Shown here: positions 10,394-39,280 of the stretch, in pieces
How the letters are laid out: every line of letters begins with the position of its first letter
How positions within the stretch are numbered: position 1 is the first letter of the stretch
Sequence record: PZ509022.1
Origin: a phage
Direction: 5' to 3' (one strand)
DNA length: 64,000 nt
Translations under genes and position numbers: made by a program
The notes under the pieces: model-generated
Told to the model about the DNA's origin: nothing
What the model saw: only the letters and a program-made list of their open reading frames with translations
Databases searched by the model: none

Positions 10394-10864
10394 TTAATCA
10401 TGTTTCCACACCCCATCGGTATTTGACCAAAGCCGCTGATTATCTGATCCTCGCCACAGCTTTTTAGTCGGAAGATTTTTCTCATACTTCCCATCAATAA
10501 TAACATCAACATATTTAAGCATTTCTAGCTGTTTAACATCTTCAAACTTATATCCTGTCCACAACCAAATGCTTTTATTGGGATAAAGATTTTTTACTGT
10601 TTGAACAATGCAATGAATAACATCTCGGTTATCAGGATAGAGAGGGTCACCTCCAGTTATAGTCAATCCTTCTATATAATCATTATTCAAACATTCAATT
10701 AATTGTTCTAGTGTTTCACCAGTGAATGGAATACCATTTCTAGCATTCCATGTTGATTTATTATAACACCCTTCGCATTTATGCAAACAACCTGTAACGA
10801 AAAGAACGACCCTGCAACCAGGGCCATTCACAAAATCGCAAGGATAAAATCTATCATAATTCAT
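10394..10864 (-). CDS. nrdG: Anaerobic ribonucleotide reductase activating protein NrdG (radical SAM)
   Basis: 156-aa ORF with the CxxxCxxC cluster (GCLHKCEGCYN); overlaps the nrdD stop. Confidence 0.9.
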   Translation of the reverse strand: MNYDRFYPCDFVNGPGCRVVLFVTGCLHKCEGCYNKSTWNARNGIPFTGETLEQLIECLNNDYIEGLTITGGDPLYPDNRDVIHCIVQTVKNLYPNKSIWLWTGYKFEDVKQLEMLKYVDVIIDGKYEKNLPTKKLWRGSDNQRLWSNTDGVWKHD

Positions 10865-12678
10865 TGGTGTTTAACCCTATGCATGATTTCTTTATTTTTA
10901 CCGAGATTAAATCCGCGTTCGTTCGGATTTCCCAAATAACCACATGTTCTTCTTATTGTGTTCATCTTTTTAGGATCAGTTTCTCCACAAATAGAACAAA
11001 CAAATCCGTTTTCAGTAGGAGTCATTTCATGGGTACTTCCGCATGTAAAACATTTATCTACTGGCATATTAACACCAAAATAATCTAAATGTTGTGCAGC
11101 ATAATCCCATACGGCCTCAAGGCCTTTTAAGTTATTTTTCATATCAGGAAGTTCAACATAAGAAATGTGACCACCTGTCGCAATGAAATGATATGGCGCT
11201 TCACGAGAAATCTTTTCAAACGGAGTAATATTTTCTTCTACTGAAACATGGAAACTATTAGTGTACCAGCCTTTATCAGTAACATCCTTTACACTTCCAT
11301 ATTTCTCAGTATCAAGTTTACAGAAGCGATAGCACAGGTTTTCAGCAGGAGTAGAATACAAGCTAAAAGCAAAACCAGTTCTTTCAGTCCACTGCTTAAG
11401 ACGAGCATTCATTTTAGTTAAAATTTCTTGTCCAATATCACGACCGACAAGAATATTCAATTCGTGAATACCAATGTATCCTAGGGACACTGAACTTCTA
11501 CCGTTTTTAAATAACTCAATTATGTCGTCATCAGGTTTAAGACGAACCCCGAATGCACCTTCTTGGTAAAGAATAGGAGCAACAGTAGCTTTAACTCCTT
11601 TTAAGGAACTAATTCTACACATCAAAGCTTCAAAACATAAATCCATTCGTTCATTAAATAGCTCAACAAATTTCTGTTCATTGAATTGTGTTCCAATATA
11701 AGAATCTAACGCGATGCGAGGAAGATTCAGTGTTACAACACCAAGATTATTACGTCCATCAAGAATTTCATTACCAGTCGAATCTTTCCATACGCTCAAG
11801 AAACTACGGCAACCCATTGGAGAAACAGGAACAGATGAACCAGTGATAGCTTTATTGTTCTTAGCTGAAATAATATCAGGATACATCCTTTTGCTTGCAC
11901 ACTCTAGAGCAAGCTGCTTAATATCATAGTTCGGATCGTCTTTGTAAAGATTAACGCCTTCTTCGACGAACATAACAAGCTTAGGGAAAATAGGAGTTAT
12001 CCCATCACGACCGAGACCTTTAATACGATTTTTCAGAATTGCTTTCTGAATCATTCGTTCAGTCCAGTCAGTTCCCGTACCAAATGTAATTGTTACAAAA
12101 GGCGTTTGTCCGTTTGAACTAAAGAGAGTATTTACTTCATATTCATAAGCTTGGAATGCATCGTATACGTCTTTTTCTGTTTTAGATTGAGCATAATTCA
12201 ACGCATCAGCGATTTGCCATTTTTCTGCATCCTCAATATGTTTTGCATATGTGCGTTTAACATAAGGAGAAAGTACTTTATCTACATTAGCAAAAGTCGT
12301 TCCGCCGTATTGGTGAGAAGCAACCTGTGCAGTAATTTGTGCCATAATTGCAGTAGCAACGCCAATTGATTTAGGAGTTTCAATTTGAGCATTGCCTAAT
12401 TTAAATCCATTCTCAAGCATTCCTTTTAAATCTACTAAACAGCAATTAGTAAAAGGCAATGATATACTGTAATCTAAATCGTGAAAATGAATTAATCCGA
12501 CATTATGAGCATTTACAATATGGCTCGGAAGAATACTACAAGCGATATGTTTAGAAACAATACCGGCCATTAAATCTCTTTTTGTTGGAAAGACACGAGA
12601 ATCTTTGTTGGCATTTTCGGTATTTAATTCTTTATCTTTATTTGAAATAAAATTTAAAACATCTTTCTCTAAAGACAT
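10861..12678 (-). CDS. nrdD: Anaerobic ribonucleoside-triphosphate reductase NrdD, uninterrupted
   Basis: 605-aa continuous ORF with the C-terminal glycyl radical motif RRTCGYLG and zinc-ribbon cysteines; no intron-like interruption. Confidence 0.95.
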   Translation of the reverse strand: MSLEKDVLNFISNKDKELNTENANKDSRVFPTKRDLMAGIVSKHIACSILPSHIVNAHNVGLIHFHDLDYSISLPFTNCCLVDLKGMLENGFKLGNAQIETPKSIGVATAIMAQITAQVASHQYGGTTFANVDKVLSPYVKRTYAKHIEDAEKWQIADALNYAQSKTEKDVYDAFQAYEYEVNTLFSSNGQTPFVTITFGTGTDWTERMIQKAILKNRIKGLGRDGITPIFPKLVMFVEEGVNLYKDDPNYDIKQLALECASKRMYPDIISAKNNKAITGSSVPVSPMGCRSFLSVWKDSTGNEILDGRNNLGVVTLNLPRIALDSYIGTQFNEQKFVELFNERMDLCFEALMCRISSLKGVKATVAPILYQEGAFGVRLKPDDDIIELFKNGRSSVSLGYIGIHELNILVGRDIGQEILTKMNARLKQWTERTGFAFSLYSTPAENLCYRFCKLDTEKYGSVKDVTDKGWYTNSFHVSVEENITPFEKISREAPYHFIATGGHISYVELPDMKNNLKGLEAVWDYAAQHLDYFGVNMPVDKCFTCGSTHEMTPTENGFVCSICGETDPKKMNTIRRTCGYLGNPNERGFNLGKNKEIMHRVKHQ

Positions 12679-13490
12679 AATTCTAATTTATCCTTTTGAA
12701 ATTCTTCGTCTAAATATGGGTTCCAACCCATTTTAAACCTTTTGATGAAATTATCAATTCTAAATTTCGGTAAATTTAACTCCGCAAAAATAGATGATTT
12801 ACTTTTAAAATCTGGACCTAAATAATCATATAAAATTTCTGCGTATTTTAACCATAATATATAAGTACCAGATTTAATTGCTCTAGGAGTTTTCCAAGGT
12901 TTTACGCCGTACATCGGATTTCCACTTCCTTTATGCCTGATAGAAGATGAAATTCCAATTTTAATTTTAGCTTCCTTTGTGTGCGAAAATCCATGATGTG
13001 GATTTTCTTTCCAGTATTTTTTAGAAGCTTCTGATATTTTCTTTCTGGCTAAATTAGTATGATGCTTTCCATAAAATCCATGATTTTTACCTTTATTACG
13101 ATTTCTTTTAATCATGGTTATTGATTGCTTTTCTCTAGTTTCTTTAGAAGGGGAAACACCGTACGTTGTAAATTGACCATTAGCATATGCTAAATTAAAA
13201 TACTCTTTATTCCATATATCTTTTTCTATATTCTTTTGAAATTCAGCTTCAATGCTAGTTATTTGTTCATCTCCGACTAATTGAAAATATAATATTTCAA
13301 CTTTCGGTGTTTCTTTCAACAGAGCTTTTTGAAATTCGGAAGATGACGAAGACGAATAATAAAATTTACCATTTTTATCAATAATATTCGTTCCGTCAAA
13401 AGTGCAATTGGTTTTACTTCCAATATAATAATATGGCGGGGTTTTAGCATTAATTCTACTAATAAATGATAGTTTATATACTACATTCAT
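12669..13490 (-). CDS. Seg-like GIY-YIG family homing endonuclease (freestanding)
   Basis: 273-aa ORF; N-terminus VVYKLSF...YYYIGSKTN resembles the GIY-YIG motif; C-terminal basic repeats (GKHHTNLARKKISEA, GFSHTKEAKIKIG) resemble NUMOD3 DNA-binding modules; stop overlaps the nrdD start. Confidence 0.65.
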   Translation of the reverse strand: MNVVYKLSFISRINAKTPPYYYIGSKTNCTFDGTNIIDKNGKFYYSSSSSSEFQKALLKETPKVEILYFQLVGDEQITSIEAEFQKNIEKDIWNKEYFNLAYANGQFTTYGVSPSKETREKQSITMIKRNRNKGKNHGFYGKHHTNLARKKISEASKKYWKENPHHGFSHTKEAKIKIGISSSIRHKGSGNPMYGVKPWKTPRAIKSGTYILWLKYAEILYDYLGPDFKSKSSIFAELNLPKFRIDNFIKRFKMGWNPYLDEEFQKDKLELCL

Positions 13491-30855: not shown

Positions 30856-31176
30856 TTATTCTTTAAATCTAATCAATTTATTCATAGACTTTGAAACTTC
30901 TGCACGAACCTCATGTAGATTTTTGAGCTGTTCAAGACGCTGCTCATAGTAAGCAATTTCATCTTCTTCGAGACAGTCCTGTGAATCTTCTTTAAGATAA
31001 CGTGCATAGTCCTGGAAAGCGTTACGAACTACTTCCTGGAAGTCATCAAGACTTTGAATTTTCTTAGGAGCAACAGATACACGACGAGGGGCAGTATAAT
31101 ACTCATAACCAAACCCTGCGCTTAATTGAGCCATTAGTATTTTTCCTCTGGTTGGAACACTGCGCGACAAGCCCAC
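30856..31176 (-). CDS. Hypothetical protein
   Basis: 106-aa ORF. Confidence 0.5.
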
Positions 31177-31400
31177 ATACTGGCTTCTTTGAGTTTCATT
31201 TTAGCAATAGTTAACTGATCGAGGCTTTCGGCGTAATTCTTCGCGAGTTCATCATCTTCACAGCTATCAAATGCTTCCCAGAATTCATCATATAAAGCAT
31301 CAAAGATAAGCCCTAAACGAACTTCAGCATCTTTGATAGCATTCACTTTACTGATTTTATCGTCAGTATGTGGTTTATAACCTTTAATGTCTTCAATCAT
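31134..31400 (-). CDS. Small acidic hypothetical protein
   Basis: 88-aa ORF. Confidence 0.5.
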
Positions 31401-31614
31401 ATTTTACTTCCTCACCTGTTCCCAAATCATATTCAACTAAACGAATAGGTTCATGAATGCCATATCCTTGAACAGAAATTTCTGTCGTAGGATAAATTCC
31501 ATTAATATCACCCATGTTCCATGCTTCGTTAAATTGCTGTTCGCCTGAATTACTAAACCACTCGGCGAAAGCATTTAGCACATCTTCAGAACCTTCAATA
31601 ATTATCTTTGCCAT
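31393..31614 (-). CDS. Small hypothetical protein
   Basis: 73-aa ORF. Confidence 0.5.
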   Translation of the reverse strand: MAKIIIEGSEDVLNAFAEWFSNSGEQQFNEAWNMGDINGIYPTTEISVQGYGIHEPIRLVEYDLGTGEEVKYD

Positions 31615-31976
31615 TACAAACTCTCGGTGAAGGTACGAGCGATAACGTCGCGCTGCTGTTCCGGAGTCAGAGAGTTAAAGCGAACTGCATAACCGGATAC
31701 ACGGATGGTCAGCTGCGGATATTTTTCCGGATGCTTAACTGCATCTTCCAGAGTTTCACGACGCAGAACGTTAACGTTCAGGTGTTGACCACCTTCAATT
31801 TTAACTGTAGGCTGTTGCTCAATTTCAATTTCACGGGCATGCAAACCATAGAAAATTTCTGGGTCTACAAAAGAGTCCTCTTTAAAGGTTTTAGAGACAA
31901 TAATTCGTGCTTGAATACCATCTTCAAAATAAATAGTACCTTTATGTGTGCCTTCAAGAATTTGATATGCTTTCAT
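31614..31976 (-). CDS. Autonomous glycyl radical cofactor (GrcA/YfiD-like; T4 Y06I type)
   Basis: 120-aa ORF; the C-terminal roughly 60 aa ([63 protein letters not shown]) matches E. coli GrcA as I recall it, including the glycyl radical motif RVSGY. Confidence 0.85.
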
Positions 31977-31982
31977 ATAACC

Positions 31983-32363
31983 TCAATTAAAAAATAAATT
32001 TATCCAAGATTGTTCTTTAATTAAAAATGGCTCAGAATCATATGCCATTAAACTCTGTGTGATTAGTCCTTTAAAAGGCCCATCAATAAATTCCATGGTA
32101 AAATATGGAATTTTATTCATTAGCCGTGCATTAGGAGCCGTGCACAAAACTCTGCATCCTTTGAATACGCCTTTTTGTAATTTGTATTGCTTGGGATAAA
32201 ATTCGCTCAAAATGTTATTTTTTGCCAAAATTTCAAAATGATTCACCAATTTATTTTTAATAGTTTTTGGCGAAAAATAAAGATATTCGAAAAGCTGAGT
32301 GTCTGTCATCATTGCATTCCGATTACGAAAAACTGTGGACGAGTAATACCACCAATGCAACAT
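31983..32363 (-). CDS. Hypothetical protein (start uncertain, possibly 32312)
   Basis: 126-aa ORF overlapping the upstream gene unless the internal Met is used. Confidence 0.45.
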   Translation of the reverse strand: MLHWWYYSSTVFRNRNAMMTDTQLFEYLYFSPKTIKNKLVNHFEILAKNNILSEFYPKQYKLQKGVFKGCRVLCTAPNARLMNKIPYFTMEFIDGPFKGLITQSLMAYDSEPFLIKEQSWINLFFN

Positions 32364-32896
32364 TTAATATTACAGCAGCAGTGTACAGTGTCAATATGGA
32401 CACTATAAATCTTATCCATATCAGGAGATTTGACAGGCTCATCAATTATATACAAAATTCGCGAAAGCGATAAACCTCTGAACTTGCTTCCTTTATTACC
32501 AATAAAACTGCGCACAGAATCAGTAAATAAACGAAAACGTATATCATCATTAGAATAACGCGAAAATTCCTTTTTAATATTATCTGCGGAAATTTTAGCG
32601 TAAGCTGAAGTATTAGAAAGAACAATAACTGTTCCACCGTCATACAACCAATTAGCGGCAAAATTAGTTACTGCAGTTGATTTACCAGATTGACGCCCAC
32701 CATCTAGTCGAAGTGTACAATACTGTTTAAGTAAGTCTTCAAATGGCGGGATATATTCGTTTTTACAAATTTCTTCTACTCTAGCATCAGAATGGTGTGT
32801 AAAAGCATTCATCAGGGATAGATAAGGACCAGTTAAAAATGTTCTCATTTTGTTCTCTCTAGGTTTGGGCCATTCCATGGCGCATGAATTGTCCAT
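32309..32896 (-). CDS. P-loop NTPase-like hypothetical protein
   Basis: 195-aa ORF; Walker A-like GGRQSGKST and Walker B-like LYIIDEP. Confidence 0.55.
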   Translation of the reverse strand: MDNSCAMEWPKPRENKMRTFLTGPYLSLMNAFTHHSDARVEEICKNEYIPPFEDLLKQYCTLRLDGGRQSGKSTAVTNFAANWLYDGGTVIVLSNTSAYAKISADNIKKEFSRYSNDDIRFRLFTDSVRSFIGNKGSKFRGLSLSRILYIIDEPVKSPDMDKIYSVHIDTVHCCCNIKCCIGGITRPQFFVIGMQ

Positions 32897-32993: not shown

Positions 32994-33410
32994 TTAAATG
33001 TAAATATTTTTGCCGTAATACTTATACCAGTGTGGCTTCATTAAAATTTTTTCATCGAGTCGTTGTTGACTCAACTTAATAGCTGATTTGCATGGATTAT
33101 AATCATTTTTCCATTCTACTGGAATATCGCTGATGTCAGGAACTTCAGTATCTTTTATACTGAACCCGCGTTTTAAGCATTCCGTTATAATGTCCGATTG
33201 ACGCTTTCGCAAAAATTCTAACTTATCGTAAAAGAAAGTAACATGACCAGAACCTAAAATAAATTTAGAAGATATTTTAAAATCTTTAACACGCTTACCA
33301 TTTGCCACATGCTTACGAACTATACCAAAAACACGCGGCAATTCACGGTATTCTGCGATTAAATGTTGATCAGCAAGTTCAGATACTAAAGTCAAATTAA
33401 TACGAGTCAT
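32994..33410 (-). CDS. denV: Endonuclease V (pyrimidine dimer DNA glycosylase) DenV
   Basis: 138-aa ORF starting [17 protein letters not shown]..., matching T4 endonuclease V. Confidence 0.93.
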
Positions 33411-33469: not shown

Positions 33470-34000
<531 letters not shown>

Positions 34001-39101: not shown

Positions 39102-39176
39102 TGGCGGACGTGATAGGATTCGAACCTATAACCAATCGCTTAACAGGCGATCGCTCTGCCATTGAGCTACACATCC
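39102..39176 (-). tRNA. tRNA-Asn (anticodon GUU)
   Basis: Hand-folded 75-nt cloverleaf: acceptor GGATGTG, anticodon stem ATCGC/GCGAT, loop CTGTTAA, T-loop TTCGAAT, CCA. Confidence 0.7.
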
Positions 39177-39180
39177 AAAT

Positions 39181-39267
39181 TGGTGGGGAGTGATGGAGTC
39201 GAACCACCCGAGTCGCAATGACAATGGATTTACAGTCCACACCGCTACCTCTACGGGATAACTCCCC
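39181..39267 (-). tRNA. tRNA-Tyr (anticodon GUA), type II with long variable arm
   Basis: 87-nt: acceptor GGGGAGT, anticodon loop CTGTAAA, long variable arm, T-loop TTCGACT, CCA. Confidence 0.6.
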
Positions 39268-39280
39268 TTAATTCTTAATT

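Follow-up and report, generated by a model that had tools for sequence, protein, structure and literature searches.

The window, by which we mean the whole stretch of 64,000 nucleotides of phage DNA that was analysed, is a segment of a Tequatrovirus (T4-type) genome, and the 24 kb around the gene considered here are ~97% identical to UAB_60 and DalCa. The gene is an open reading frame of 120 amino acids that runs from ATG to TAA on the minus strand (31614..31976). It is the Tequatrovirus ortholog of T4 vs.6 (Y06I), which encodes an autonomous glycyl radical cofactor, a homolog of the 'spare part' GrcA/YfiD. The assignment draws on nucleotide identity, the T4 annotation, Pfam and the match to PDB 6owr. 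In the T4 reference genome vs.6 (NP_049730) carries the annotation autonomous glycyl radical cofactor GrcA, and T4 vs.6 and the window gene share 98.6% nucleotide identity. The vs.6 genes of phages Pinarejo and Lutter are 100% identical in nucleotide sequence to the window ORF, and the Lutter record likewise labels its copy 'autonomous glycyl radical cofactor GrcA'. The gene and its function are already known: vs.6/Y06I is a named and experimentally characterised T4 gene, annotated in T4 for decades, a point apparently missed by an earlier reading of this DNA made from the sequence only.

The neighbours of vs.6 stand in T4 order, namely e (lysozyme), denV, vs.8, vs.7, vs.5, vs.4, vs.3 and regB. 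A putative Shine-Dalgarno-like GAGGT, read directly in the sequence, lies 3 nt upstream of the vs.6 ATG and overlaps the vs.7 stop (31980..31984, minus strand), and the TAA of vs.6 in turn overlaps the ATG of vs.5 (TAATG). Upstream of vs.7 a consensus scan found a sigma-70-like match, TTGACA-16-TAATAT (32367..32394, minus strand), which is a candidate early promoter of vs.7-vs.6-vs.5-vs.4-vs.3; the Lutter record also has a promoter annotated upstream of its vs.7 ortholog. The tight block and the upstream promoter match fit early expression of vs.6, although promoter and terminator match counts in the scanned region were not above shuffled expectation. A terminator-like match inside vs.6 lies on the wrong strand and was treated as chance.

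Two genes downstream of vs.6, in the same tight block, the vs.4 ortholog (88 aa; 31134..31400, minus strand) matches Pfam Acb2_Tad1_hairpin (E=3e-18), which makes it a sponge of the Acb2 type, directed against cyclic-nucleotide (CBASS/Thoeris) defence. On the other side of the block, denV (32994..33410, minus strand) adjoins the lysozyme gene e (33470..33964, minus strand), where the T4 reference has ipII and ipIII between the two. Lutter presents yet another denV-e arrangement, and this internal-protein region is a variable spot.

The search matched vs.6 to 1507 phage records, and in 863 the match spans at least 80% of its length. Nolan et al. 2006 (PMC1524935) count it among the ORFs conserved in 6/6 of the T4-like genomes that they compared. 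As a whole gene, vs.6 is old and conserved across T4-like phages and is no recent capture. The possibility that it is a decaying fragment is contradicted by the intact ORF in hundreds of phages and by its invariant motif block.

Family membership and the glycyl radical domain

The best NCBIfam model for vs.6 is TIGR04365 (spare_glycyl; E=1e-45, aa 20-120). Its score of 154.9 bits falls below the curated equivalog cutoff of 170, because the N terminus is divergent, and compares with 233.9 bits for E. coli GrcA; TIGR04365 is nonetheless the top-scoring family for vs.6 by a wide margin. Pfam Gly_radical covers aa 60-101 (E=2.5e-18). The top solved structure is PDB 6owr, that of GrcA (E=9e-42), and the next structure-derived match, to PflB 697-759, is weaker (E=5e-26). 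BLASTP against E. coli GrcA gave 74/100 identities (E=2e-52), with aa 61-120 of vs.6 identical to GrcA 68-127 at 60/60 positions, RVSGY among them. This bears out the claim, made earlier from the sequence, that the C-terminal ~60 residues are GrcA-like and include the RVSGY site.

The predicted glycyl radical site within RVSGY is Gly95, whose codon lies at 31692..31694 (minus strand). In the BLASTP alignment Gly95 corresponds to GrcA Gly102, an offset of +7, and in the alignment to PflB 697-759 the RVSGY of vs.6 falls on that of PflB itself, whose radical site is Gly734 (PMC8683613). All five residues, R92, V93, S94, G95 and Y96, are invariant in an alignment of 17 phage and bacterial sequences.

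The vs.6 product belongs to the small, stand-alone class (~14 kDa), with a 120-aa ORF that has its own start, Shine-Dalgarno-like GAGGT and stop. A member of the PFL family would have a full-length catalytic barrel of ~760 aa, with Cys418/Cys419 in its active site. Against the full-length PFL model (TIGR01255), vs.6 covers only positions 680-744 of 744 and scores 89 bits, compared with a cutoff of 994.

The 5' half of the gene (aa 1-59/60; 31799..31976, minus strand) is of phage type in both nucleotide and protein comparison with GrcA. It has 45.8% nucleotide identity to grcA, and the first ~20 aa of vs.6 could not be aligned to GrcA by BLAST. When the N-terminal halves were compared alone, 14/39 residues were identical (36%, E=1e-5). 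The N-terminal half is conserved among T4-like genera in the 17-sequence alignment. By these comparisons, the vs.6 N terminus is a diverged homolog of GrcA's N-terminal half, which is disordered. That it is an unrelated fusion partner is ruled out by the halves-only alignment together with the TIGR04365 match over aa 20-120.

Host-identical DNA in the 3' half

The 3' half of vs.6 carries 169 consecutive nucleotides that are 100% identical to E. coli grcA (gene nt 179-347, aa 60/61-116; 31630..31798, minus strand). Over the last 186 nt of the gene, identity to E. coli grcA is 96.8% (180/186). Over the same stretch a second Escherichia species reaches 95.7% and no further genus in the sample exceeds 90%, the bacterial sample comprising 80 grcA loci with K. 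pneumoniae proper absent. All 5426 of 5426 complete E. coli genomes match this 3' part at 95-99%. Nucleotide identity to a host is unusual for a lytic phage, and nucleotide-level constraint in bacteria does not explain it, because the DNA of bacterial orthologs whose protein is the same, or almost so, has only 84-92% identity to that of E. coli grcA (Citrobacter 92%, Klebsiella 85-86%, Salmonella 84%). The two halves of vs.6 also differ in composition: GC/GC3 is 0.34/0.20 in the 5' half and rises to 0.50/0.46 in the 3' half, the latter in agreement with E. coli grcA. The start of the tract at aa 60/61 coincides with the border between the disordered and structured halves of GrcA (domain border from PMC8683613).

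The donor of the tract is grcA, because the 3' end of pflB is only 78.5% identical to the last 186 nt of vs.6; pflB and tdcE were rejected as donors by this comparison. The similarity to the GrcA and PflB C termini goes far beyond a motif, with grcA the closer of the two genes, and the weak likeness that would have refuted the sequence-only reading was not seen. Several phage records label vs.6 homologs 'Pyruvate formate-lyase'. For phage GrcA genes this is a misnomer, because only the last ~63 residues of PflB are represented and the DNA is nearer to grcA than to pflB (96.8% against 78.5%).

Comparison with the Mosigvirus ChristianSchoenbein places the tract in time. The window gene and its counterpart differ at 21/177 positions in the 5' half and at 3/169 in the tract (Fisher p=2e-4), and in a sliding comparison the tract reaches identities of 0.97-0.99, the 5' half 0.86-0.90 and the flanks 0.45-0.8. 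The tract is younger than the split between Tequatrovirus and Mosigvirus, because it diverges far less than the 5' half and the flanks. Apart from the tract, nothing in the window resembles an E. coli chromosome at megablast level: the remainder of the 64 kb, searched by megablast against all complete E. coli genomes, gave no chromosomal match.

The one other megablast match of the window to E. coli assemblies is to plasmids. A stretch of 158 nt in the phage tRNA cluster (39116..39273, plus strand) is 83-85% identical to plasmids in 255 E. coli genomes and never to a chromosome. It matches tRNA-Tyr/Thr/Asn genes on plasmids of ~97-110 kb, which are probably phage-plasmids.

The nucleotide comparisons indicate that only the 3' half of vs.6 is recently host-derived. 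The sequence-only reading had called the gene as a whole host-derived; in the recent sense this holds for the 3' half, with its perfect run of 169 nt, and fails for the complete gene, which is old (6/6 T4-like genomes, 1507 records). If confirmed, vs.6 would be a warning that 'host-derived' auxiliary genes can be mosaics of old phage and recent host sequence. In the searchable literature, outside which key older papers lie, we found no description of a mosaic structure or of host conversion for vs.6.

Beyond the tract, the 3' terminus of the gene (31612..31629, minus strand) is a patchwork. Its last five sense codons depart from E. coli at five synonymous positions, gene nt 348, 351, 354, 357 and 358, such that vs.6 ends ACC TTC ACC GAG AGT TTG and E. 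coli grcA ends ACC TTT ACT GAA AGC CTG. These terminal differences vary by phage, with five in the window gene, two in T4 vs.6 and a different set of three in Mosigvirus. The pattern could mark variable recombination end points or the tuning of a GAGAG ribosome-binding site for vs.5. As a purpose-made Shine-Dalgarno sequence for vs.5 (GAGAG against GAAAG), the synonymous changes are unconvincing, since the pattern varies between phages.

These features bear on how the tract was acquired. Homologous recombination with E. coli grcA would have overwritten the 3' half of vs.6 recently, and probably more than once, in both Tequatrovirus and Mosigvirus. T4 is known to recombine with homologous DNA that the cell harbours, as in the insertion/substitution vector system. 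At gene nt 219 both T and C occur, in E. coli alleles as well as in phages, and at nt 282 both groups have C or A. In a comparison of ~10 phage and four Escherichia alleles, biased in that one E. coli allele was picked as the best phage match, these shared polymorphisms and the variable 3' end points hint at repeated exchange with different host alleles. That recurrent gene conversion with the host chromosome keeps the 3' half identical to grcA in both genera is quite possible, if still short of probable.

A single event followed by spread could also have produced the tract. Here one phage would have captured grcA sequence recently, and the tract would have passed through Tequatrovirus and Mosigvirus by phage-phage recombination with no ongoing exchange with the host. 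T-even phages recombine freely, and the 5' half, at 0.86-0.90 identity between the two genera, could mediate such exchange; moreover, RB43, RB16, CC31, KP15 and KPV15 carry no recent host tract (77-88% to sampled grcA). However, the T/C at nt 219 and the C/A at nt 282 are shared by different E. coli alleles and different phages, albeit in a small sample with one biased allele, and the 3' end point of host identity differs from phage to phage. We give a single capture somewhat less than an even chance. If recurrent conversion is true, vs.6 would be a natural, ongoing and easily scored reporter of DNA flow from host to virulent phage, in which the phage would be 'updating' a spare part of metabolism to match the host that it currently infects. 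Once confirmed, it would provide a simple natural system in which to measure recombination between a virulent phage and the host chromosome.

Predicted function and the NrdD/NrdG pair

Both YfiD and T4 Y06I acquire a glycyl radical from PFL-AE and then restore activity to O2-cleaved PFL, according to the work of Knappe and co-workers (Wagner et al. 2001, BBRC 285:456) as summarised in Andorfer et al. 2021 (PMC8683613). The earlier proposal of a GrcA/YfiD-like autonomous glycyl radical cofactor agrees with this biochemistry, as far as the summary relates it, and with the RefSeq annotation of T4 vs.6. In GrcA/YfiD, residues 61-127 fold as PFL 693-759 does and slot into the damaged enzyme, and the disordered residues 1-60 are needed for cPFL binding and efficient activation, not for catalysis (PMC8683613). 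Since the inserting domain of the window protein is identical to that of the host, the same mechanism would be expected for it. Radical installation and PFL rescue by the window allele would likewise be expected from T4 Y06I, to which it is identical at 118/120 positions.

The following sequence of events can be proposed. Oxygen that reaches the Gly734 radical of PflB cleaves the chain and inactivates pyruvate formate-lyase. The vs.6 protein would then bind the cleaved PFL, its N-terminal half probably aiding recognition, and aa 61-120 would replace the lost PFL C terminus. Host PflA would put a new radical on Gly95, such that conversion of pyruvate to acetyl-CoA and formate could resume. No PFL activase was seen in the window, where NrdG is the sole radical-SAM activase, and hence host PflA must be present and active. 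T4-type phages stop host transcription and break down host DNA, which leaves the infected host unable to induce grcA itself. A phage copy expressed early may thereby keep up fermentative energy and acetyl-CoA supply under micro-oxic conditions in the gut. We infer both this benefit to the phage in vivo and the timing of vs.6 expression. The literature searched yielded Nolan 2006 and the YfiD biochemistry papers, and no in vivo vs.6 phenotype. In this role, vs.6/Y06I is a standard case of a phage sustaining host fermentation under micro-oxic conditions.

The opposite role, that of a decoy or inhibitor, would have vs.6 titrate PflA or cap PFL, and so shut down or redirect fermentation by way of the divergent N terminus. 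The half that serves binding and activation in GrcA is indeed only 36% identical to its counterpart in vs.6, and the vs.6 score lies under the NCBIfam equivalog cutoff. However, T4 Y06I, with the same N terminus bar Q54P, is reported in the summary cited above to reconstitute PFL activity. Moreover, the catalytic domain is identical to that of the host, as functional replacement requires, and the radical glycine and all motif residues are invariant across phages. A decoy is therefore very unlikely. Nor is any different function for the N terminus supported, because T4 Y06I rescues E. coli PFL with what is essentially the same N terminus. The N terminus had been proposed to mark a specialised phage version; its divergence is real (45.8% nucleotide and 36% amino-acid identity), but we found no sign of specialisation, and T4 Y06I with its near-identical N terminus works in vitro.

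The co-residence of the gene with NrdD/NrdG, to which the sequence-only reading had drawn attention, is correct. The window holds nrdD, for the anaerobic ribonucleotide reductase (10861..12678, minus strand; Pfam NRDD E=6e-171, Gly_radical E=1e-25), and nrdG, for the NrdD activase (10394..10864, minus strand; Pfam Fer4_12 E=4e-48, Radical_SAM). A NUMOD3 motif (E=5e-8), characteristic of homing endonucleases, occurs in a 273-aa ORF (12669..13490, minus strand) that separates nrdD from gene 49 (endonuclease VII) and shares 10 nt with the start of nrdD. The window nrdD is an uninterrupted single ORF of 605 aa, unlike T4 nrdD, which contains an intron.

Both nrd genes lie ~19 kb from vs.6 in other transcription units, and nrdD is context only, without a functional link to vs.6. 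That vs.6 might be a spare part for, or partner of, the phage NrdD is scarcely credible. In its favour, Pfam Gly_radical is matched by vs.6 and NrdD alike, NrdD belongs to the glycyl radical enzymes (the title of a cited paper places the T4 radical at Gly580), oxygen damage of this kind threatens all such enzymes (PMC8683613) and a role in nucleotide metabolism has been speculated (Nolan et al. 2006, PMC1524935). Against it, BLASTP of vs.6 against the window NrdD gave no significant similarity (best E=2.4, away from the NrdD C terminus), whereas the last 60 aa of vs.6 are those of GrcA and match those of PflB 697-759 (E=5e-26). Moreover, 19 kb separate the two loci, which belong to different transcription units, and Y06I works with PFL and PFL-AE in the biochemistry as summarised (PMC8683613). 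A vs.6 ortholog that rescues PFL, encoded by an old gene with a recently overwritten 3' half, is the best joint explanation of the data and in our judgement a highly probable one.

Comparison with other GrcA proteins

GrcA-like genes of other phages (RB43/RB16, CC31, KP15, KPV15 and phages of ~110-120 kb) encode proteins of the same architecture, in which the motif block (10 + 17 residues) is invariant, as in vs.6. Three of the loci, L097, L099 and L101, we take to be those of RB16, RB43 and KP15; the identity of KPV15 was confirmed. The 3' halves of these genes share 70-88% DNA identity with any sampled grcA and lack a recent host tract. Host tracking at the nucleotide level was not found in KPV15/KP15, CC31 and RB43/RB16, at 77-88% to any of the 80 sampled grcA loci. 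At the protein level, the E. coli phages RB16/RB43 have ETLEDAVKH and the Klebsiella phages KP15/KPV15 have ETLLDAVEH, a form likewise present in the GrcA of Klebsiella, Raoultella and Salmonella. In the other T4-like genera, host-type variants are seen at the amino-acid level only.

The KPV15 homolog of vs.6 (L109:1501-1866; KY000080 / NC_055715) has a 1-nt frameshift in its record, and its relatives align with an extra base. KPV15 is without vs.5, and its vs.6 stop overlaps the start of vs.4/Acb2. GC content is 0.56 in the 3' half and 0.36 in the 5' half, which suggests that the KPV15 3' half may be a separate, high-GC host-derived tract. Its donor is not among the 80 sampled species, the best match being Pseudocitrobacter at 88%. 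Salmonella phage Lv5cm (MZ150757) carries a second CDS annotated as 'autonomous glycyl radical cofactor' (61 aa; L166:1338-1523). This CDS lies directly upstream of the full vs.6 and overlaps its start, giving two match places in the record; it could reflect a partial duplication or be an artefact of annotation.

Among IMG/VR contigs of 32-154 kb (L102-L107, L119 and L121), some GrcA 3' halves are closest to grcA of Pasteurellaceae (Haemophilus parainfluenzae). Most of these contigs are 80-84% identical to grcA, with perfect runs of up to 53 nt; the exceptions, L106 and L107, have their nearest match in a locus of Pantoea (78-80%). The contigs fit a resemblance of phage GrcA C-terminal domains to those of the likely host family.

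The window protein is identical to T4 Y06I (GRCA_BPT4) at 118/120 residues. T4 Y06I has P54 and H73 where the window protein has Q54 and R73, the latter as in E. coli GrcA. Both genes sit in the same vs.7-vs.6-vs.5-vs.4 block, between regB and denV. With E. coli GrcA (YfiD, PDB 6OWR) the phage protein shares a two-part build of an N-terminal half and a glycyl radical domain, but it is 7 aa shorter, and whereas the E. coli gene lies between ung and eamB, vs.6 is part of a phage operon. The C-terminal domain of PflB (residues 693-759) is homologous to vs.6, with a 13-residue stretch identical, yet it is only to the last ~63 residues of this 760-aa enzyme that vs.6 corresponds.
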